Below are positions 6,349-16,378 of a DNA stretch of 64,000 bases, piece by piece. The position numbers were made by a program, and so were the translations under genes. Source of the stretch: Methanofastidiosum sp. (GTDB lineage Archaea; Methanobacteriota_B; Thermococci; Methanofastidiosales; Methanofastidiosaceae); the NCBI GenBank assembly GCA_020854815.1, contig JAHKLW010000005.1:7422-71421 (forward strand), given 5' to 3'. Each line of letters starts with the position of its first letter. Positions within the stretch are counted from its first letter, which is position 1. The notes under the pieces are model-generated. The model made no database searches. It saw only the letters and a program-made list of their open reading frames with translations, and was not told the DNA's origin.

Positions 6349-7212
6349 ATGTATCGGCCTGCTTATGTTGCCGGGAGTTTTTATCCGGCAGATAAATCAT
6401 CTCTTCAAAAAATGATTGAAAAGTTTATGGATGCGGCAAAGACAAATATTGATTTTATTGACGAAGGAAGATTTGCAGGCGTGCTCTGCCCTCATGCAGG
6501 ATACGTTTTTTCCGGCAAAACTCAGGCATATTCATATTATTATTTATCGAATTCACCACCCGAAACTTTTGTAATTCTTGGGCCAAATCACACTGGTTTG
6601 GGCCTCCCTGTTGCACTGATGGACAAAGGCTCGTGGGAAACACCTTTTGGAGAAATAAAGATCAATGAAGAGCTTGCATCAAAAATAGTTGAAAACTCTG
6701 GATCTATAGGCATTGATTCAGCTGCCCATAAATACGAGCATTCCATAGAAGTTCAGTTACCATTTTTACAGTACATAAAAAAGGATGCAACTTTTGTCCC
6801 AATATGTATGGGGATCCAAGACAGAGAAACAGCAATTGGAATAGGAAAGGCAATAGCAAAATCAAGTAAAGAACCTTTAGGTGTAATTGCTTCAAGTGAT
6901 CTCGTGCATTATGGTAGTCGTTTCGGATATAATCCTGTTAGAGGTAACAAAGAAGAAACTCTTTCATGGATAAAGAGCAACGATATGGAAATACTAAAAA
7001 TGGCTGAGCATTTTGATATTGAAGGATTATATAATTTCATAGATAGCAAAGACTATACTACATGTGGCTATGGTCCACTTTCAGCAATGCTTTCATGTAT
7101 GAGAGAATTAGGTGGAAGAAAAGCAAGAATTTTAGATTATTCAAATTCATATGAAACTTCAGGGGATTACAGCACAGTTGTAGGCTACGGTTCGGTGGGG
7201 GTCAAATGTTAG
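6349..7212 (+). CDS. MEMO1 family protein (AmmeMemoRadiSam system protein B)
   Basis: The N-terminus PAYVAGSFYP and the block CPHAGYVFSG are hallmark MEMO1/AmmeMemoRadiSam-B signatures. Size is 287 aa. Confidence 0.85.
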   Translation: MYRPAYVAGSFYPADKSSLQKMIEKFMDAAKTNIDFIDEGRFAGVLCPHAGYVFSGKTQAYSYYYLSNSPPETFVILGPNHTGLGLPVALMDKGSWETPFGEIKINEELASKIVENSGSIGIDSAAHKYEHSIEVQLPFLQYIKKDATFVPICMGIQDRETAIGIGKAIAKSSKEPLGVIASSDLVHYGSRFGYNPVRGNKEETLSWIKSNDMEILKMAEHFDIEGLYNFIDSKDYTTCGYGPLSAMLSCMRELGGRKARILDYSNSYETSGDYSTVVGYGSVGVKC

Positions 7213-8183
7213 TATCTGCACCAGGAAAAATAATCCTATTTGGAGAGCATTCAGTTGTTTATGGAAAAGGAGCAATAGCTTCAGCAATTGATTTACGTAC
7301 ATATACTGATGGGAAACTCCTAAATGAAAAAATAATCAAGATCCACGCAAATGACCTTAAAATACCGGGCCTTAGCATATCATTTTCTGAGGAAGAGGTC
7401 TTTTTAGGAACAGATTACGGCAAGGCTGGCTTTGTCGTGTCATATGTAAAATCTGCAATTGAAAGGATATTCACTGAATACGGTTCAAGAAAGGGTTTTG
7501 AGATTTCAATAAGATCTGATATCCCCGTTGGTGCAGGGCTTGGATCTTCTGCGGCAGTTGTTGTCCCAACTTTAAAGCTTCTTTCAGAGCTTCTTGAAAT
7601 GAAGCTTTCAAATGAGAAGATAGCAAGGATGGGAAAAGAAGTTGAAATTGAAGTCCAGGGTAGTTCAAGCGGAATTGATCCTGCAGTTTCAGCACTTGGT
7701 GGCGGACTTTATTTTAAGAAAGGAAAAATCGAGAGATTTTCTGCCCCAAATCTTCCACTGATAGTTGGATACACTGGAGAGAAGGGAAGCACTAAGATTC
7801 TTCTTGAAAAAGTAAAGACAATGAAGGAAGACTACCCAGATATAGTTGACAATATCATGGATGCTATGGGAGAGATAGCAAATAGAGGGAAAAAAATATT
7901 GAGCGAAAATGGGGACCTAAAAGAACTGGGTGCTTTGATGAACATCAATAACGGTCTTCTCGAAGCAATTGGCGTTTCGACAAAAGAGCTATCTGAGCTT
8001 GTTTTCGCATCAAGGATTTCTGGTGCTCTCGGTGCAAAGATAACTGGTGCCGGTGGTGGAGGATGCATGTACGCTTTAGCACCGAATAAACAGAGGGAAG
8101 TTGAAACTGCGATAAAGATTTCTGGTGGTATACCCATTAAAACTAAAACAACGGATGAAGGAGTAAGAATAGAGCATGGGTGA
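7206..8183 (+). CDS. mvk: Mevalonate kinase
   Basis: GHMP kinase motifs are present: APGKIILFGEHSVVYG, PVGAGLGSSAA and KITGAGGGGCM. It overlaps the upstream gene by 7 nt. Confidence 0.9.
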   Translation: MLVSAPGKIILFGEHSVVYGKGAIASAIDLRTYTDGKLLNEKIIKIHANDLKIPGLSISFSEEEVFLGTDYGKAGFVVSYVKSAIERIFTEYGSRKGFEISIRSDIPVGAGLGSSAAVVVPTLKLLSELLEMKLSNEKIARMGKEVEIEVQGSSSGIDPAVSALGGGLYFKKGKIERFSAPNLPLIVGYTGEKGSTKILLEKVKTMKEDYPDIVDNIMDAMGEIANRGKKILSENGDLKELGALMNINNGLLEAIGVSTKELSELVFASRISGALGAKITGAGGGGCMYALAPNKQREVETAIKISGGIPIKTKTTDEGVRIEHG

Positions 8184-9378
8184 ATATTTATCCTATATTA
8201 TTAATGAACGGGCAAGGAACTATTCTCTTAGTAAAACTTCAACGGATTTTGTTTCAAATAATGTTGCAAAAAAGGTTAGGTCAATTTACTCTGCTATGCC
8301 TGAATATCAAAGAACTCCTTTGGTATCATTAGACAATCTCTCTAAAAGGATAGGTGTTGGAAAAATTTGGGTGAAGGATGAATCCTATAGATTTGGCCTT
8401 AATTCGTTTAAGTCTCTTGGAGGCGTCTATGCGATTTACAAGACATTGGAAGAGATGGCCCCTAGGAGTATCTCAATCTCAGAGATATTTTCACCTTCGT
8501 TTAAGGAAACTGTTGGTGAATTGACATTTTCAGCTGCGACAGATGGAAATCATGGCCTTGGAGTTGCATGGGCTTCAATGAAGCTTGGACAAAAAGCTAT
8601 AATATATCTCCCAACGGGCACAGCTTCACAAAGAATTGAAGCCATAAGAAAGACTGGGGCTAAAGCAGTCGTGATAGATGGGAACTATGACGATGCCGTA
8701 GAGAAGATGGCAAGAGATGGTGAAAAGGAAGGTTGGCAAGTAATGTCAGACACTGCATGGGAAGGCTATCAAGATATACCTGCCTGGATTATGCAGGGCT
8801 ATACCGTCTTATTTGATGAAGCGATGGAAGAAATAAAAGAAAAAGGTGGAGATATGCCAACTCATGTAATCCTCCAAGCAGGCGTCGGTTCATTTTCTGC
8901 TTCAGGTATTGGTTACTTTAACTCCATATATGGAAAGAAAAGACCTATCTCAATTATCGTTGAGCCAGATAATGCGGCATGTTTTTATGAGTCGATTCAG
9001 ATTAATGACGGAAAACCTCACAGAGCAAAGGGGGATCTTTCGACCATAATGGCAGGATTATCTTGTGGGGTACCTAATCCAATAGCGTGGAACATTCACC
9101 TCGACTATTCAGATATTTTTGTTTCTTCTAGAGATGAACTTTCTGCCCTTTCGATGAGAGTCTTGGGAAATCCTTTGAAAGGTGACAAAAAGGTCATTTC
9201 AGGAGAAAGTGGTGCAATTGGGCTGGGGGTCCTAATGCACATCAAAAAAGATTTAGAAATTGGAAATGATTCAGAAATTCTATTAATCAGCACTGAAGGT
9301 GATACAGACCCCAAAGGATATCATGATGTTGTGTGGGGAGGGAAACTCCCCTCGAGACTTCCTACAGAGTCAAGATGA
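8176..9378 (+). CDS. dpaL: Diaminopropionate ammonia-lyase-like PLP enzyme (tryptophan synthase beta fold)
   Basis: KDESYRFGLNSFKSLGG carries the PLP lysine context typical of DpaL/YgeX-type enzymes. The protein is 400 aa and overlaps mvk by 8 nt. Confidence 0.65.
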   Translation: MGEYLSYIINERARNYSLSKTSTDFVSNNVAKKVRSIYSAMPEYQRTPLVSLDNLSKRIGVGKIWVKDESYRFGLNSFKSLGGVYAIYKTLEEMAPRSISISEIFSPSFKETVGELTFSAATDGNHGLGVAWASMKLGQKAIIYLPTGTASQRIEAIRKTGAKAVVIDGNYDDAVEKMARDGEKEGWQVMSDTAWEGYQDIPAWIMQGYTVLFDEAMEEIKEKGGDMPTHVILQAGVGSFSASGIGYFNSIYGKKRPISIIVEPDNAACFYESIQINDGKPHRAKGDLSTIMAGLSCGVPNPIAWNIHLDYSDIFVSSRDELSALSMRVLGNPLKGDKKVISGESGAIGLGVLMHIKKDLEIGNDSEILLISTEGDTDPKGYHDVVWGGKLPSRLPTESR

Positions 9379-9946
9379 TAATGGCTCCAATTGCCATCAA
9401 TGCAATCCACCATATTTTTTCATGACGAAATATTTTTGTCCCGTCAAGTGGCCCAAATGGTAAAAGGTTGAATACACCAATAAATGCACTGACATATGCA
9501 ATCTGCGCCAATAGAGGGATAAATGTAAATCTAAACAATGCAAGAGTGGAAACTGCGACTATAATATTTGCAAGAGGTCCTGAAAGAGATATCTTCGCAT
9601 CTTTCTTTTCATCTGTCAATCCATAAATGTAGACTGCACCAGGTGCCGCAAATACTATTCCAAGGGCAAATGACATCCCCAGAGCAAGTAAAAGCCCAGT
9701 CTGCCAAACATGAAACTGTGCAGGATATCCGTATCTAATTGCAGTGAATTTGTGTGAGAGTTCATGAATCAAAAATGCTGCCCCAACTATCACAAAATAT
9801 TTTGGGAGTGTTGATATAAAAAATATTATTCTGTTGACACTGCCCAATGCAAATGCACCACCACTGAAGGCGAATCCAAATGCAAGAGATAATACTGACC
9901 ACGCAACTAAAAGCTCAATAACTTCTTTTTTATTAAAATTATACAT
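9362..9946 (-). CDS. Site-2 protease (peptidase M50) family membrane metalloprotease, short form
   Basis: HELSH sits in a TM helix, together with the NLLPFGPLDG motif (NxxPxxxLDG). The protein is polytopic and 194 aa. Confidence 0.8.
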   Translation of the reverse strand: MYNFNKKEVIELLVAWSVLSLAFGFAFSGGAFALGSVNRIIFFISTLPKYFVIVGAAFLIHELSHKFTAIRYGYPAQFHVWQTGLLLALGMSFALGIVFAAPGAVYIYGLTDEKKDAKISLSGPLANIIVAVSTLALFRFTFIPLLAQIAYVSAFIGVFNLLPFGPLDGTKIFRHEKIWWIALMAIGAIIILTL

Positions 9947-10592
9947 CTATTTCACCTAAGTATCGTTTTATCCCAGAAACATGACCTGCTCCCACGATAG
10001 CTAAAACCTTTTCTTTCTGTATTCTTTTTAAGTTTTCTGCCATGAATCTATCCCGCTCATCGACAAGCACTTCATATATGTAAGGATATCTATGCTTTAT
10101 TTCATCAATTAGCTCACCTGAATTTTCGTAAACATAATCAATTGTATACTCTTTGTCTGGAAGAACTGCGTCTTTTAAAATCATGACCTTTTCTTTGAAT
10201 CCTACTTTCTCTAAAAGCTTCTGTATTGTTATCCTAAGATCCCTATCAATCAATGCGACTGGTATTCCTTGAGACCTAGCCTCAATGGCAGCTTCGATCA
10301 TTTCTCTACCAGCCACAATTCCCGTGTCAGTTGATATCTTCTTCTGAAGATAAGACATAAATAATAACAAAAAAGCATTTTTAAACCCGAACTCTTTCAT
10401 TTCTCTAAGCGTTGGCTTTCTATCGTCATTGTGTAAGAGAGCATCAAGTCTTGCAGGATCAAGCTCAAGGGCAACTATATCTGGTTTTTCCTCTCTTATG
10501 GCTTCCCGGACTTCAATAACGCTCTTCTCATAGACGTGGGCTGTGCCAAGGATTATATAGGTGGTCTCACCAAGCTTTAGGTACTCCTTCAT
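9939..10592 (-). CDS. TraB/PrgY/GumN (Tiki-like) family protein, soluble domain only
   Basis: ILGTAHVYEKS...IVALELD...GAGHV is typical of the TraB family. At 217 aa it lacks the C-terminal TM region found in many TraB proteins. Confidence 0.75.
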   Translation of the reverse strand: MKEYLKLGETTYIILGTAHVYEKSVIEVREAIREEKPDIVALELDPARLDALLHNDDRKPTLREMKEFGFKNAFLLLFMSYLQKKISTDTGIVAGREMIEAAIEARSQGIPVALIDRDLRITIQKLLEKVGFKEKVMILKDAVLPDKEYTIDYVYENSGELIDEIKHRYPYIYEVLVDERDRFMAENLKRIQKEKVLAIVGAGHVSGIKRYLGEIDV

Positions 10593-11642
10593 TTACACCC
10601 TCTTTAGCATCAGTATTTCAGAAAATCTAAGTATATCTGTTTTTGAGATGAATCCGACAAGTTTACCATTTTCAAGAACTGGTGCCCTCCCAAGATTTTT
10701 TTCTGTAAGTTTTGTATGCAGATCAAATACTTCCATATCAGGAGATGCTATGATGATGTCTTTTACCATGACATCTTCAACTTTGGTATCGATCCATTTA
10801 ATCCTTGGGACTGACAGAAGCTCATTCGTAGTTATAATGCCAAGAACTTTGTCATCAAAAACAACGGGGTATCCTTTGTGTCTTTTTTCTATCAAGAGTT
10901 TTTCAAAATCCTCCATGGTATCATAAGGTGAGACCGTCGCAATGTTTTTTACCATGAGGTCCTTTACCTTAATCCCTTTCAACGCTGAGGACATCTGAGT
11001 TGACTGGTATTCCCCCATGCCTCCCATGTAAATAAAAAAGGCGATAATAATAAGCCAAGGATTATAAAAAACACCAACAAATGCAAAAATAATTGCAAGC
11101 CCTTGTCCTATCCTAACAGATATTTCTGTTGCCTTGAGATATTCCATCCTTGAAGAAAGAAATGCCCTAAGTACCCTGCCTCCGTCCATGGGAAATGCCG
11201 GGATTATGTTAAACAGTCCCAATATGAAATTAAGAGACATCACAATCCTAACTATATCTGTAATGGAGTCTAATTGGATCCAGTTGAAGTCAAAGTACAT
11301 ACTAAGCCCGAAAAGAGTTCCGAATAAAAATAATAGTGCACCTATGGCTATGCTTGTAATTGGGCCAATCACAGCTATTGCAAACTCATGCCCCTTTGGT
11401 ATAGCCTCCATCTGAGAAACTCCTCCTATTGGGAGAAGAGTAATCTTTTTAATCTTGGCGCCATAACGCCTTCCAACAAGAGAATGTGCCAACTCATGCA
11501 CTAAAACTGACGCAAATAATAATAAAATGACCAGTAACGGAATGAAGCCAAATATTGCGAAAATCAAAAGAAGCAGTAAGAATGTAATGTGAAGCTCTAT
11601 CTGTATACCGAATATACTTCCAAACTTTAAACTCCAAGGCAT
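10593..11642 (-). CDS. Site-2 protease (peptidase M50) with C-terminal CBS domain pair
   Basis: HELAHSL and NIIPAFPMDGGRVL motifs are present. The C-terminal roughly 130 aa shows a tandem CBS-like pattern (VKDLMVKNIATVSP..., VEDVMVKDIIIASP...). Confidence 0.85.
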   Translation of the reverse strand: MPWSLKFGSIFGIQIELHITFLLLLLIFAIFGFIPLLVILLLFASVLVHELAHSLVGRRYGAKIKKITLLPIGGVSQMEAIPKGHEFAIAVIGPITSIAIGALLFLFGTLFGLSMYFDFNWIQLDSITDIVRIVMSLNFILGLFNIIPAFPMDGGRVLRAFLSSRMEYLKATEISVRIGQGLAIIFAFVGVFYNPWLIIIAFFIYMGGMGEYQSTQMSSALKGIKVKDLMVKNIATVSPYDTMEDFEKLLIEKRHKGYPVVFDDKVLGIITTNELLSVPRIKWIDTKVEDVMVKDIIIASPDMEVFDLHTKLTEKNLGRAPVLENGKLVGFISKTDILRFSEILMLKRV

Positions 11643-11685
11643 AAATCATCTTTAAGCAACAACACTTATAAGTTTTAGTTTTTGG

Positions 11686-11756
11686 GGGAGCCAAAAAATT
11701 TGTACCCTCTGAGAAATTATACTGCATTGGCTCCCAGACTAAAGAAATTGGGTACA
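11686..11756. repeat. Two interleaved GC-rich inverted repeats (pseudoknot-like arrangement) in an AT-rich divergent intergenic region
   Basis: GGGAGCCAA (11686-11694) is complementary to TTGGCTCCC (11727-11735). TGTACCC (11701-11707) is complementary to GGGTACA (11750-11756). Confidence 0.6.
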
Positions 11757-11931: not shown

Positions 11932-12141
11932 ATGATTGATATCATGGAATCAAAGATAAAAGATTTAACCATTGAAGAGTTCCGTCTGCTCTTATCGGAT
12001 ACTCTAAAAGAAGTAATGGAAGATTTGAAGGAGGACATGTTGGCTCTTTCAAGTCAGGATTATATTGATTCAATTGAAGAGTCGAGGAAAGATTACAAAG
12101 AAGGGAAATTTAAAAATCTAGAGGATATACTAAATGTATAA
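11932..12141 (+). CDS. Type II antitoxin (small acidic protein upstream of the RelE/ParE toxin)
   Basis: The protein is 69 aa and acidic. It overlaps the downstream toxin gene by 8 nt, the classical TA arrangement. Confidence 0.6.
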   Translation: MIDIMESKIKDLTIEEFRLLLSDTLKEVMEDLKEDMLALSSQDYIDSIEESRKDYKEGKFKNLEDILNV

Positions 12142-12388
12142 TGTCGTTATCCCCGACAGAGCCTCCAAGGATTTAGAGAAAATTGATAAAAAAACTCAGA
12201 AGATAATCCTTTTAAAAATAAAAGAATATTCCTCGAATCCTTTTAGATATTCAACTAGATTAAGTGATACTAGGATTGGAGATTATAGATTTAGAATTGG
12301 TAAGTACAGAGTCATTTTTGATATTGATGGGGATAATTTAGTAGTTTTGAGAATAGGCCATAGAAAGAATATTTATAAAAATATATAA
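12134..12388 (+). CDS. relE: RelE/ParE family type II toxin
   Basis: The protein is 84 aa. RIGDYRFRIGKYRVIFDIDGDNLVVLRIGHRKNIY is the typical RelE/ParE C-terminal pattern. Confidence 0.8.
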   Translation: MYNVVIPDRASKDLEKIDKKTQKIILLKIKEYSSNPFRYSTRLSDTRIGDYRFRIGKYRVIFDIDGDNLVVLRIGHRKNIYKNI

Positions 12389-12398
12389 TAAAAAACAA

Positions 12399-12472
12399 CG
12401 GACCAGGGGGGATTTGAACCCCCGACCTATAGCTTAGGAGGCTATCGCCATATCCACTAGGCCACTGGTCCC
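12399..12472 (-). tRNA. tRNA-Arg (CCT)
   Basis: The reverse complement reads GGGACCAGTGGCCTAGTGGATATGGCGATAGCCTCCTAAGCTATAGGTCGGGGGTTCAAATCCCCCCTGGTCCG. The anticodon stem is ATAGC/GCTAT and the loop is CTCCTAA. Confidence 0.9.
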
Positions 12473-12482
12473 AAATCGGATT

Positions 12483-14303
12483 TTATAACATTATATATAA
12501 GTTTTTACCATTCATAATGCCGTCTTCGATTTGCTCAGCGATTGGATTTTTGTTTGATATCTTGATTTTTCCAGACTTTGGAACATTAATCTCTTCAAGG
12601 TAATCATCCTCTAGGAATATTTTGACACTTTTTCGTGCAAATCTTTTTTCAACATTTATGAGAACATACTTTTCCCTGAAGTCAACATCCACTGGGATTC
12701 TGCCCTTTTTACCCTTCTCCTGAGTCTTTTCCATTGGTCTTACATCAATTGAAAATCCTATTGCATTCTCAAGTGCCCTTATGTTTTTTCCTTCCTTACC
12801 TATTATTGAGGGAATATCATCATTTTTAACATAAAGAGCAATCCTAGAATCTGATACTGCTTCTAGATCAAATTGTATCCCAAGTTCAGCGTTTAACTTT
12901 TCCTTTAGCTTTGATAGAGCTAATTTCTTCATAGGAGATGTTTCTTTTCTCCGGGCTTTAAGGGGCATCACGACGACCTGCTCCCCATATGTGTAAATCT
13001 CATAAAGCGGAGTCTTTGAGTAGAAATCCTTTATCTCAACTATCGGTCTTGCAAGGTCAGCTTCACTCATGCCGTGAGGAACTTTTACCAAAAATTCTAA
13101 TTCTAAGACCTGATTCAATTCTCCGTTTTTTATGAAGATAATAGTGTCAATGAGCTGCGGTATAATACCTAGCTCAATCCTTCCTATGAAACGCTGAATT
13201 GCATCGACAGGTTTTGTCGCATGGACAACGCCAACCATGCCCACACCTGCAAGCCTCATATCAGCATATATCTTGAAATCATTTGTGACCCTCATTTCAT
13301 CAAAGATTGTAAAATCTGGCCTTACTAAAAGTAGTATATCGCCGGTCTTTGCCATATCACCTTCTAGTGCAGTATACTGAGTTATCTCAGGCTGGACATT
13401 TAGGTCCCTTGGCTTTTCCATTGTCTTTACTATCTTTTCTAAAGATGCGTAGTACTCTGCTATGGCCTGGGCAAATGTGGACTTACCCATACCTGGTGCA
13501 CCTGCGATAAGAATTCCTTCTGCAGTTTCAAGCCTCTTCATGAGCTGCTCAGGCAGATTATAATCTTCCAAGCTAAGTTTTTTAACAGGTCTCACAGCAG
13601 TTATTTCAAATCTATCTGAAAATGGCGGTGAAGTAATTACTATCCTGTATTCTTGCAACTGGACAACACTCGCTCCTTTTTCATCAAGTTCGATAAAGCT
13701 ATCCCTTGTAGTTTTTGCTCTCTCTAAGATATCAAGAGAGATTTCCTTTAGCTCATCTTCGCTGTAAATCCTATCATACTTTTCTAAGACTATTGAGCCG
13801 GGCTTTCCTTTCTTTCTTGCTGGCATGATGCCATCTTTTAGGTGAACAGATAAGGTTTCTAAATCAAAGAAATCCTCAATCTTTAGTTTTACCTTTTTAT
13901 ATGGCTTTAGAAAAATTGACTGCACCCCTTTGGCCTCGGCAATATCTTTTTGGATTAGGTCGCCTGTTATTAGGGTGCCGCCTAAATCCATTGCGGCCTC
14001 CCTGATGATGGCGTCAATATCGCCTTTTTTAGCACCTGCAATCTCATACCTTGTTGGCCTCTTGCCGTAGTATTCCAAAGGTACGAATATCTCCTTTGAA
14101 ATATTGAATATTGCCTTTAACTCTGCGATGCCAGATATTCCAGAGGATTTCCCCTCGTTTGCTAGATGCTCAACCTCTGCAACTGTGGCTTCAGCTATGA
14201 CAATTCTTTCTAAATCCTTTACAAAATCAGCATCGCGCAAAAGAGCCTTGAATCTACCGTCAACTACAACGGATGTGTCCGGTACAGCAATCATATGAAT
14301 CAC
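12483..14303 (-). CDS. PIN domain + PilT/VirB11-type ATPase + KH domain protein (archaeal PINc/PilT-family ATPase)
   Basis: The N-terminus is PIN-like (VPDTSVVVDG). Walker A is GAPGMGKST and the C-terminal KH GXXG motif is IGKEGKNIRALE. Size is 606 aa. Confidence 0.8.
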   Translation of the reverse strand: MIHMIAVPDTSVVVDGRFKALLRDADFVKDLERIVIAEATVAEVEHLANEGKSSGISGIAELKAIFNISKEIFVPLEYYGKRPTRYEIAGAKKGDIDAIIREAAMDLGGTLITGDLIQKDIAEAKGVQSIFLKPYKKVKLKIEDFFDLETLSVHLKDGIMPARKKGKPGSIVLEKYDRIYSEDELKEISLDILERAKTTRDSFIELDEKGASVVQLQEYRIVITSPPFSDRFEITAVRPVKKLSLEDYNLPEQLMKRLETAEGILIAGAPGMGKSTFAQAIAEYYASLEKIVKTMEKPRDLNVQPEITQYTALEGDMAKTGDILLLVRPDFTIFDEMRVTNDFKIYADMRLAGVGMVGVVHATKPVDAIQRFIGRIELGIIPQLIDTIIFIKNGELNQVLELEFLVKVPHGMSEADLARPIVEIKDFYSKTPLYEIYTYGEQVVVMPLKARRKETSPMKKLALSKLKEKLNAELGIQFDLEAVSDSRIALYVKNDDIPSIIGKEGKNIRALENAIGFSIDVRPMEKTQEKGKKGRIPVDVDFREKYVLINVEKRFARKSVKIFLEDDYLEEINVPKSGKIKISNKNPIAEQIEDGIMNGKNLYIML

Positions 14304-14308
14304 AAGGG

Positions 14309-15052
14309 CTAGTAAATTTCTCCCTGTGGATATACCACTATGCCCTCTTTAGAGATGGAAAACGGATACTGCTTTATCTTATGATTTGTCTCCCTCATCT
14401 TCCTGATGAATATGCTCCTCTTGTACTCTGCCATCCTGGGCATGGCCTTTTCCCCTTCGACAAGGTGCATTGTGATAACTCCCCTAGTTATGAACTCTTC
14501 ATATCCAAATCGGGAATAACCGTGGCCATTAATAATCTCAGTTATCAGAATTGAAGTTGCCTTTGTCTCAGTTAAGACCCTTCCCATCATATAGATATCG
14601 TCTCGCATGTTTTCAGGTTCTTCAGAGAAGAAAAATGCTGGGAGGGAATCTATGACAATTCTTTTTGCATTAATATCCATAGCTATCTCATATAATTTTG
14701 AAAGAAGGGATTTTATGTCGACATCGCTTTTGACGTAAAAGTTTTCATCTGTGGGAACACCTACCCTTAAAGATGCAGCGTCGAGGATGACAATTTTTTT
14801 CTGATCTTCGTATTTTTTAAAATCCCATCCGAACTGGAGAGCTTCTCTTCTTAGCTCTTCAGGTTTTTCTTCAAACGTTACATAGATGCCTGCCTCTCCA
14901 AAATCCTTGGCACCAGAGTAGATATACTGCAGGGAAAATATAGTTTTTCCTGTTCCTGCCTCACCAGACAATAATATTGACGAGCTTTGAGGTAACCCCC
15001 CTCCAATTAGCTCATCGAGCCCTTTAATTCCTGTCTTTACTCTTTCATCCAT
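14309..15052 (-). CDS. KaiC/RadA-like RecA-superfamily ATPase (single domain, 247 aa)
   Basis: GIKGLDELIGGGLP is followed by Walker A GEAGTGKT and Walker B RIVIDSL. Confidence 0.85.
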   Translation of the reverse strand: MDERVKTGIKGLDELIGGGLPQSSSILLSGEAGTGKTIFSLQYIYSGAKDFGEAGIYVTFEEKPEELRREALQFGWDFKKYEDQKKIVILDAASLRVGVPTDENFYVKSDVDIKSLLSKLYEIAMDINAKRIVIDSLPAFFFSEEPENMRDDIYMMGRVLTETKATSILITEIINGHGYSRFGYEEFITRGVITMHLVEGEKAMPRMAEYKRSIFIRKMRETNHKIKQYPFSISKEGIVVYPQGEIY

Positions 15053-15772: not shown

Positions 15773-16378
15773 TTATATTCTGAATCTATCAAATATTACA
15801 TTATTATTATTTATACGATACTTTATTCTTTTATAGTTTCCGCTATAAAGCTTGCCAAAATCAACATAAAAAACCTCTTCCCCCATTTCAACGGCCCTTT
15901 CCAAGAAGAGCGTAGCTTCGGCCAAATGCCTTATTGATACTTCAACTTCATCTTTGTGCATGCCCTTGTGTAAAAAGATTATTATCCGGGCATTTTTTTC
16001 CCTCCCCATTGCAAATAGCCTCTGGAGAAACCGGTAAACTGGAACAAGGCCTAGCGTTACTAATAAGGAAGAAATAGAGTCTATAATTACTGTCGTATCT
16101 TTTCCTGTTTCTTCCCTTGCCATGAAGATATTTCTTATGATTTCATCTAAATCGTATGCATAAGAGATGTGGTATTTCTCAGAGCTTTTGATCCCAAGCC
16201 TTTCGGTATAACAGTCAATTATGAATTTGGGCTTGAAGAGCTCTCTTATCTCTAGTGGGCTTTTGTCTATGCCCACATATATTAAATCGCCCTTGATTAA
16301 TTCTTTGCCAAAATACTCTTTTCCAGTTTCTGGCTCTCCTAGAAGAAGTATGTTGTTCTGTTCTAACTCTTTGAGCAT
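15773..16378 (-). CDS. KaiC/RecA-fold protein with degenerate P-loop (201 aa)
   Basis: LLLGEPETGKEYFG is a Walker A-like motif lacking the Ser/Thr after Lys. Walker B-like TVIIDSIS is present. The overall pattern resembles the 247-aa neighbour. Confidence 0.6.
   Translation of the reverse strand: MLKELEQNNILLLGEPETGKEYFGKELIKGDLIYVGIDKSPLEIRELFKPKFIIDCYTERLGIKSSEKYHISYAYDLDEIIRNIFMAREETGKDTTVIIDSISSLLVTLGLVPVYRFLQRLFAMGREKNARIIIFLHKGMHKDEVEVSIRHLAEATLFLERAVEMGEEVFYVDFGKLYSGNYKRIKYRINNNNVIFDRFRI

Follow-up and report, generated by a model that had tools for sequence, protein, structure and literature searches.

Why should a TraB-family protein be encoded between two intramembrane proteases on an archaeal chromosome? 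This question is raised by a locus on a 64,000-nt stretch of DNA from Methanofastidiosum sp. (GenBank assembly GCA_020854815.1, contig JAHKLW010000005.1, positions 7,422 to 71,421, forward strand), hereafter called the window, by which the whole stretch is meant and to which all window coordinates refer. On its minus strand, three genes follow one another in the order M50-CBS, TraB and sM50. The first encodes a putative site-2 protease (S2P) of peptidase family M50 with a pair of CBS domains, the second a short protein of the TraB/Tiki superfamily, and the third a second, predicted minimal S2P. Each of the three proteins is a new member of an already known family; what is new is that an operonic pairing of TraB with an S2P-fold protein is conserved over distant archaea, that sM50 stands in for the anchor of TraB, and that TraB partners in DPANN archaea are S2P-fold pseudoproteases. 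The genes, and the sequences that may serve their starts, are the following.

10593..11642, minus strand: M50-CBS gene (349 aa), with the motifs HELAH and PMDGG
9939..10592, minus strand: TraB gene (217 aa)
9362..9946, minus strand: sM50 gene (194 aa), with the motifs HELSH and PFGPLDG
10596..10603, minus strand: Shine-Dalgarno-like, purine-rich AGAGGGTG, within the 3' end of M50-CBS and just 5' of the TraB ATG
9952..9957, minus strand: Shine-Dalgarno-like AGGTGA, within the 3' end of TraB, 5 nt 5' of the sM50 ATG

The three genes are tightly packed. The stop codon of M50-CBS (TAA, 10595-10593) directly abuts the start codon of TraB (ATG, 10592-10590), and the sequence ATGTATAA holds both the sM50 start codon (ATG, 9946-9944) and the TraB stop codon (TAA, 9941-9939), so that TraB and sM50 overlap by 8 nt. 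Comparison with the list of open reading frames (ORFs) and with the sequence itself found the coordinates of the three genes and both junctions, as reported in a first-pass annotation of this DNA, to be exact in every detail. The two Shine-Dalgarno-like motifs were read from the sequence and would assist initiation at the two downstream genes. No terminator-like site was detected inside the three-gene unit by a bacterial-type promoter/terminator scan, which is of little use for an archaeon. Based on the abutting stop and start codons, the 8-nt overlap, the Shine-Dalgarno-like motifs at both downstream starts and the lack of an internal terminator-like site, we infer that M50-CBS, TraB and sM50 constitute one transcription unit and that they are probably co-translated. 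The same gene order was observed in 13 Methanofastidiosum loci (10 from genome and three from metagenome contigs), with both junction geometries identical wherever the contig reaches that far, and the window TraB is 79-91% identical to proteins from Methanofastidiosum metagenome-assembled genomes.

We then turned to the identity of the encoded proteins. Pfam searches bore out the M50/CBS, TraB and M50 contents that the annotation had assigned to the three genes, and all of the motifs it quoted are present in the translations. M50-CBS matched Peptidase_M50 (PF02163) at 70.5 bits (cut-off 27.2) and two CBS domains at 89.7 bits (cut-off 24), and contains VHELAHS, i.e., the HExxH motif placed in a membrane helix, together with NIIPAFPMDGG, which corresponds to the NxxPxxxxDG motif for the third ligand. 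Its residues 2-228 match MJ0392, also named MjS2P (Protein Data Bank, PDB, entry 3B4R), with an E value of 6.7e-45, while residues 228-345, the CBS pair, match the chain named 'SITE-2 PROTEASE' of PDB entry 5G5R (E 2.7e-18); a match to SpoIVFB was also obtained (E 9.6e-9). M50-CBS therefore shows the sequence characters of M50/site-2 proteases and, having both S2P-core homology and a C-terminal CBS pair, those of the CBS-type subgroup. It is assigned by sequence as an MJ0392-type S2P and an orthologue-grade relative of MJ0392, with an N-terminal membrane core followed by the CBS pair. Membrane core, CBS pair, HExxH and xDG motifs are thus shared with MjS2P and 5G5R, for which no partner or substrate is known; the window S2P, in contrast, is coupled to TraB.

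The core fold of MjS2P appears to be common to sM50 as well. This protein matched Peptidase_M50 (PF02163) at 46.1 bits (cut-off 27.2), has neither a CBS nor a PDZ domain, and carries IHELSHK and NLLPFGPLDG, with six hydrophobic helices indicated by hydropathy. Residues H61, E62, H65 and D168 are invariant in 40 homologues. AlphaFold2 models of single chains were used for fold comparison; the sM50 model (mean predicted local distance difference test, pLDDT, 91.4) had MjS2P (3B4R) as its top PDB fold match and as the only match at probability 1.0 (E 1.2e-3), with a template modelling (TM) score of only 0.47, and RseP structures came next. In sequence, the relation to MJ0392 is distant (E 9e-5). 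By its motifs, its Pfam match and its core fold, sM50 belongs with the M50/site-2 proteases, and we regard it as a predicted minimal six-helix S2P paralogue from a separate, widespread family. The 698 matches to that family are approximately 195-240 aa long, and many carry the annotation 'site-2 protease family protein' or 'Zn-dependent protease'. In locus L095 (3001-4373), a distant sM50 homologue without linkage to TraB is convergent with, and overlaps, a gene for a PrsW protease. Members of the PrsW family are site-1 proteases and, in Bacillus, act before an S2P.

Regarding TraB, the Pfam domain TraB_PrgY_gumN (PF01963) was matched at 79.9 bits (cut-off 26.8). Of the longer model TIGR00261 (380 positions), only positions 3-217 were matched, at 172.7 bits, which is under the cut-off of 178.35, and the window protein is hence a truncated, domain-only form and not a full-length 'TraB family protein' in the sense of that model. 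It has no hydrophobic segment (the maximum 19-residue Kyte-Doolittle mean is 0.75) and no signal peptide. Since the TIGR00261 match stops at position 217 of 380 and no hydrophobic segment exists, TraB lacks the usual C-terminal membrane domain, as the annotation had held. Its motifs are GTAH (G16-T-A-H19), ELD (E43), DERD (R180) and GAGH (G201-A-G-H204). All are invariant or nearly so, and G16, H19, E43, R180 and G201-H204 are invariant across 32 aligned short and long homologues; the catalytic residues, whose absence on careful alignment would have spoken against the proposal, are therefore in place. Two GxxH motifs and a conserved Glu place TraB among TIKI proteins, in which a 2His/2Glu site forms the active-site set (PMC6254334); one Glu of that set, E43, was assigned. 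The TraB model (pLDDT 84.6) matched the fold of the Tetrahymena TraB-family subunit 8BQS_DQ (E 4e-8, TM 0.62) and of ChaN (2G5G, probability 1.0), with weak matches to the Ere-like 3B55 and to PMT. Overall, TraB is predicted to be a short, soluble TraB/Tiki-superfamily hydrolase domain with intact catalytic motifs.

To what extent does this pairing recur outside the genus? A single-protein scan of genome contigs returned only Methanofastidiosum relatives, and the wider survey was hence built from metagenome contigs, which were scanned with a TraB alignment, the best 80 loci being kept, plus a few look-ups; the metagenome contigs carry no taxonomy. All stop-to-stop ORFs were searched with a profile of 100 sM50 homologues, with the membrane core of M50-CBS and with its CBS pair. 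Outside Methanofastidiosum, the survey covered 83 TraB-anchored loci and 393 kb of DNA on their flanks. The 32 M50-type ORFs detected there are all immediate same-strand neighbours of TraB; one of them had been flagged as non-adjacent only through an overlap of stop-to-stop ORFs, an artefact. When the TraB proteins were clustered at 78% identity into 50 lineages, at least 23 of these had an adjacent M50 gene, as compared with a chance rate of approximately 0.4%, or well under 1%, which is our own estimate assuming few M50 genes per genome of about 2,000 genes. Methanothrix and Woesearchaeota are named examples. TraB-M50 adjacency is thus strongly enriched across distant archaeal lineages, as the first-pass annotation would have required. 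Moreover, full-text searches of the literature yielded no description of a TraB-S2P pairing, in keeping with the suggestion that the module is uncharacterised, even though an earlier mention in older papers may exist.

The annotation had also proposed a conserved three-gene module, and in this respect the survey led to a different conclusion. The pairing of TraB with M50 is conserved, but the triad consists of two separate dyads that coincide in two lineages only, namely Methanofastidiosum and that of loci L020, L074 and L083; the triad was therefore rejected as a conserved unit in favour of the dyads. In the first dyad, M50-CBS lies directly upstream of TraB. This arrangement was found in nine lineages: Methanofastidiosum; L020/L074/L083; L100; L022; L023; L031/L040/L048 together with Methanothrix (L099); L046; L062/L077/L079/L092; and L084. 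In six lineages other than Methanofastidiosum, the two genes overlap by as much as 4 nt or lie up to 22 nt apart, and in the remaining two (L031/L046/L062/L077) they are separated by 66 to 272 nt. The TraB of these dyads is mostly of a long form, of approximately 400 aa, with its own C-terminal membrane domain.

The second dyad follows a different rule. An sM50-like gene directly downstream of TraB was present in 14 of 18 informative lineages with a short TraB, versus one of 24 with a long TraB (Fisher's exact test, p = 7.5e-7; two class assignments in this comparison were corrected manually), and a reciprocal look-up added locus L097 as a second long-TraB case with sM50. The passage from one form to the other is shown directly by the L020/L074/L083 lineage: TraB of L020 is long, with a C-terminus matching the membrane-domain profile at E 7e-45, whereas the TraB proteins of L074 and L083 share at least 78% identity with it but are truncated just before the membrane domain, and all three loci keep both M50 genes. 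We also considered that sM50 might be the TraB membrane domain split off as a separate gene, and rejected this on comparing 45 long-TraB C-termini with the sM50 family (hhalign probability 0.1%). Because the membrane domain of long TraB proteins is not homologous to it, sM50 is a non-homologous substitute and not the product of a split gene. Hence, sM50 and the TraB membrane domain have a complementary distribution, sM50 taking the place of the anchor.

By sequence, the TraB partners fall into two groups. Those of group A, which include the window protein and those of L020, L026, L074 and L083, are 195-225 aa in length, with HELxHK and PLDG preserved. Group B partners are longer (approximately 250-265 aa), and those of their relatives that are named carry the label Woesearchaeota or Nanoarchaeota. 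In this group, PPLDG is kept and HExxH is replaced by HDxGQ, HHSAQ, HISAQ, HLAIQ or similar; only L085 has HESGH. A search with the L011 partner returned 462 relatives, almost all of them 'hypothetical' and without a Pfam match, and among the best 120 of these, HDxGQ was found in 117 and PPLDG in 118. The decay goes furthest in the partners of L101 (3207-3968), which reads NQIGQ and PLPGNLG, and of L067 (4587-5327), which is similar: both have lost all three predicted metal ligands, still follow directly after TraB and are, on sequence grounds, clear S2P-fold pseudoproteases.

The TraB motifs remain invariant while the partner loses its active site yet keeps its position, which argues for a docking, scaffold or substrate-presenting role of the partner. 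These data fit an S2P fold that would provide a membrane dock or present substrates, TraB being the component that stays constant and putatively catalytic. The suggestion that the short M50 protein serves as membrane partner of TraB fits three results, in that sM50 tracks the anchorless TraB (p = 7.5e-7), is not homologous to the anchor (0.1%) and is kept after decay of its active site, and it is retained here as a proposal. A comparable case is offered by the iRhoms, inactive rhomboids that scaffold a different protease: the sM50-like partners of DPANN archaea likewise keep the fold and position of an intramembrane protease and lose the catalytic residues, although the protease clan differs. 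To our knowledge, no S2P pseudoprotease scaffold has been described so far. As a separate observation, a small PRC-barrel-like ORF was noted near a TraB/sM50-like pair in four DPANN loci, being divergent and upstream of TraB in three of them (L011 3619-3930, L032 3618-3911 and L067 3618-3956), and downstream of the partner in L101 (4056-4334).

What could such a module do? That the three proteins are functionally and physically linked seems to us fairly probable. The scheme that we infer from the above extends to physical contact, cytoplasmic orientation, order of cleavage, substrates and the CBS ligand. M50-CBS would be an intramembrane zinc protease of the MJ0392 type, whose activity is probably tied to an adenosine-type ligand through the cytoplasmic CBS pair. 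TraB, having no membrane anchor of its own, is proposed to be held by docking on an S2P-fold protein, chiefly sM50 and possibly also M50-CBS. The S2P-fold proteins would bind or cut membrane-embedded peptides, most likely remnants of signal peptides (lipoprotein signal peptides among them) or other stubs with a single membrane span, and TraB would then trim or destroy whatever part is accessible from, or set free into, the cytoplasm. The soluble parts of the module are placed in the cytoplasm because TraB has neither signal peptide nor membrane segment, and because CBS pairs are taken as cytoplasmic. On balance, we slightly favour a membrane-associated, cytoplasm-facing proteolytic module of this kind, acting on membrane-released peptides such as signal-peptide remnants; a specific role in signal-peptide handling is put forward only tentatively.

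Several observations weigh against this interpretation. Around half of the sampled TraB lineages, mostly long forms and including Methanococcus maripaludis, have no adjacent M50 gene, and the full triad is restricted to the two lineages named above. The metagenome sample consists of the 80 matches most similar to the query TraB and is neither random nor taxonomically labelled. Two short-TraB lineages (L021 and L032) lack any partner; the short TraB of L100 is accompanied by M50-CBS only, with a 4-nt overlap; and in L102 (2501-4641) a short TraB of 246 aa has no M50 gene, a rhomboid gene being located two genes downstream on the same strand. In addition, of three distant sM50 homologues that were looked up, one adjoins TraB and the other two do not, and therefore sM50 would also have TraB-independent roles, its family being broader than the association with TraB. 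The orientation of TraB is deduced only from the missing signal peptide and from a CBS pair taken as cytoplasmic, and the domain of enterococcal PrgY is thought to work outside the cell (PMC7117660). Finally, TraB need not act on peptides at all, given that the Tiki superfamily includes esterases (Ere) and haem binders (ChaN).

Among the other explanations, the one that survives best concerns regulation, and it draws on the DNA upstream of the operon, where two features were recognised.

11666..11671, minus strand: TATA-like TTATAA, approximately 24 nt upstream of the M50-CBS ATG, a candidate promoter
11682..11736, minus strand: 55-nt non-coding element TGGGAGCCAATG-N27-TTGGCTCCCCCAA, immediately 5' of the TATA-like box and containing the inverted repeat GGGAGCC/GGCTCCC

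The element is nearly invariant in nine Methanofastidiosum loci and occurs as a single copy in the window; ACTTATAA, with TTATAA at 11671-11666, is likewise invariant in nine loci of the genus, whereas the 20 nt right before the M50-CBS ATG vary. An mRNA covering the three genes, with no leader or a very short one, would be transcribed from TTATAA as promoter, upstream of which lies an operator-like element. The element had no Rfam family and its single-sequence fold was not significant (z-score -1.1); it may possibly be an operator or a small RNA.

A strongly conserved inverted repeat just upstream of the putative promoter suggests that the operon itself is regulated, which speaks for a switch based on regulated intramembrane proteolysis rather than a housekeeping clearance system. 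In such a switch, TraB would be a site-1-like, priming or finishing protease acting on a specific membrane-tethered regulator, the S2P(s) would release that regulator, and the CBS pair would sense the input. S2Ps classically work in two-step cascades, and the sM50 homologue of L095 adjoins a gene for a PrsW-type site-1 protease. However, none of the lineages has a conserved gene for a regulator or substrate that accompanies the dyads, and the dyad flanks vary from lineage to lineage (ribosomal genes, TATA-binding protein, GyrB), which favours a general function over a dedicated signalling switch. Moreover, TraB has no extracytoplasmic or sensor part, and reviews record no established substrate or biological role for any archaeal S2P. 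We consider such a switch unlikely.

It is also conceivable that TraB is no protease at all, and that it works as a regulatory or adaptor subunit gating substrate access to the S2P, as BofA and SpoIVFA do for SpoIVFB of Bacillus subtilis. There, too, a CBS-containing S2P is found in a multi-protein membrane complex with dedicated partners; these, however, are inhibitory membrane proteins and not Tiki-type hydrolases, and the SpoIVFB substrate, Pro-sigmaK, is known. Control of CBS-domain S2Ps by partners that occupy the active-site cleft is known (PMC9042235), and some members of the Tiki superfamily are non-catalytic, as is PMT, which lacks the 2His/2Glu site (PMC6254334). Against this, the catalytic motifs of TraB are invariant in all 32 aligned homologues, and a regulatory TraB predicts the opposite of what is seen in DPANN archaea, where the active site that decays is that of the S2P-like partner. 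A purely regulatory TraB therefore appears quite unlikely.

A more specific version of the proteolytic module would make TraB and its S2P-fold partner a part of the downstream lipoprotein-biogenesis machinery still missing in archaea, either as counterpart of the lipoprotein signal peptidase or as a dedicated remover of lipoprotein signal peptides. This idea stems from two facts, the first of which also supports the signal-peptide link of the favoured module: the archaeal Tiki-superfamily membrane proteases of arCOG02142 rank within the top 25 arCOGs for co-occurrence with predicted lipoproteins, as one of only two unassigned membrane-protein families therein, and for archaea a lipoprotein signal peptidase has yet to be identified (PMC12462473). 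We regard it as a long shot. If it were true, the DPANN partners with HDxGQ or without metal ligands would be the first S2P-fold pseudoproteases acting as substrate-presenting scaffolds. The weakest explanation, by which the adjacency would be inherited synteny of unrelated housekeeping genes without functional or physical coupling, can point to the PIN-KH ATPase gene that lies near TraB both here and in Methanococcus maripaludis and to the many TraB genes without an M50 neighbour, but it is already disfavoured and very improbable, as adjacency recurs where the flanks are otherwise unrelated, every M50 ORF in the 393 kb of flank is an immediate TraB neighbour, partner presence correlates with loss of the TraB anchor (p = 7.5e-7), and the junctions are tight or overlapping in several lineages.

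Returning to the proteolytic module that we favour, the nearest functional parallel is found in Enterococcus faecalis (pCF10/pAD1), where Eep and PrgY/TraB represent the same two protein families and act on a like class of peptides derived from the membrane, the likeness to the archaeal module being functional only. A review that cites studies of how the intramembrane protease Eep processes pheromones also presents PrgY as the presumed degrader of the endogenous peptide pheromone cCF10 (PMC7117660). In Enterococcus, eep is chromosomal and prgY/traB is located on a plasmid, so that the genes are unlinked, whereas the archaeal genes are coupled. PrgY is described as membrane-localised (PMC7117660), and the window TraB has no anchor. 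Furthermore, the S2Ps of the window resemble MJ0392 and are not of the Eep/RseP type: Pfam searches of the two proteins returned nothing besides Peptidase_M50 and, in M50-CBS, the CBS domains. The locus does not belong to the enterococcal pheromone shutdown system, as it is archaeal and chromosomal and has no plasmid or pheromone context, being flanked by genes for a mevalonate kinase, a pyridoxal-phosphate (PLP) enzyme, a ParE toxin pair, a tRNA and a PIN-KH ATPase. With Tiki1/TRABD2 and the wider TIKI superfamily (RRSP, Ere esterases, ChaN), the window TraB shares the fold and conserved His/Glu-type motifs. The best-known TIKI members have particular soluble or lipidated proteins as their targets (Wnt, Ras), in contrast to the window protein, which is a bare domain of 217 aa. 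We know of no TIKI-superfamily member that pairs with an intramembrane protease.

The conserved TraB-S2P pair provides independent genomic evidence that the two families cooperate, as the genetics of Eep and PrgY in enterococci had hinted. It also offers concrete protein pairs with which to approach both the role of archaeal S2Ps, the founding S2P structure being itself archaeal, and the mechanism of TraB/PrgY proteins. Moreover, the sM50 partner suggests that an S2P fold may serve as dock or substrate presenter for another hydrolase, and the co-occurrence of arCOG02142 with lipoproteins ties the module to the search for the missing steps of archaeal lipoprotein maturation.

The genes surrounding the triad in the window are listed below.

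7206-8183: mevalonate-kinase-like GHMP kinase gene, overlapped by 8 nt by the PLP gene
8176-9378, plus strand: PLP-dependent enzyme gene, convergent, its 3' end overlapping that of sM50 by 17 nt (9362-9378)
12134-12388, plus strand: ParE-family toxin gene, overlapped by a small upstream ORF (11932-12141), presumably the antitoxin
12399-12471, minus strand: tRNA-Arg(CCT), beside the ParE pair, both lying between the PIN-KH ATPase gene and the triad
12483-14303, minus strand: PIN / T2SSE-type ATPase / KH protein gene
14309-15052, minus strand: KaiC-family ATPase gene (Pfam ATPase/KaiC, E 1e-72), placed directly downstream of the PIN-KH ATPase gene
15773-16378, minus strand: second ORF with a sub-threshold KaiC-family match (25.6 bits, cut-off 26.6)

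Related genomes have between 269 and 1343 bp separating the ATPase gene from M50-CBS, and on this basis the toxin pair resembles a variable insertion. The PIN-KH ATPase is 47% identical to the Methanococcus maripaludis protein (L014, 113-2005), and its gene, being near TraB in both organisms, may be a remnant of an old synteny around TraB. Methanococcus maripaludis has a long-form TraB, next to which a stand-alone gene for a CBS pair is divergently oriented. On the other side of the triad, L009 and L010 have no PLP gene at this place, and that of L005 seems to be fragmented.

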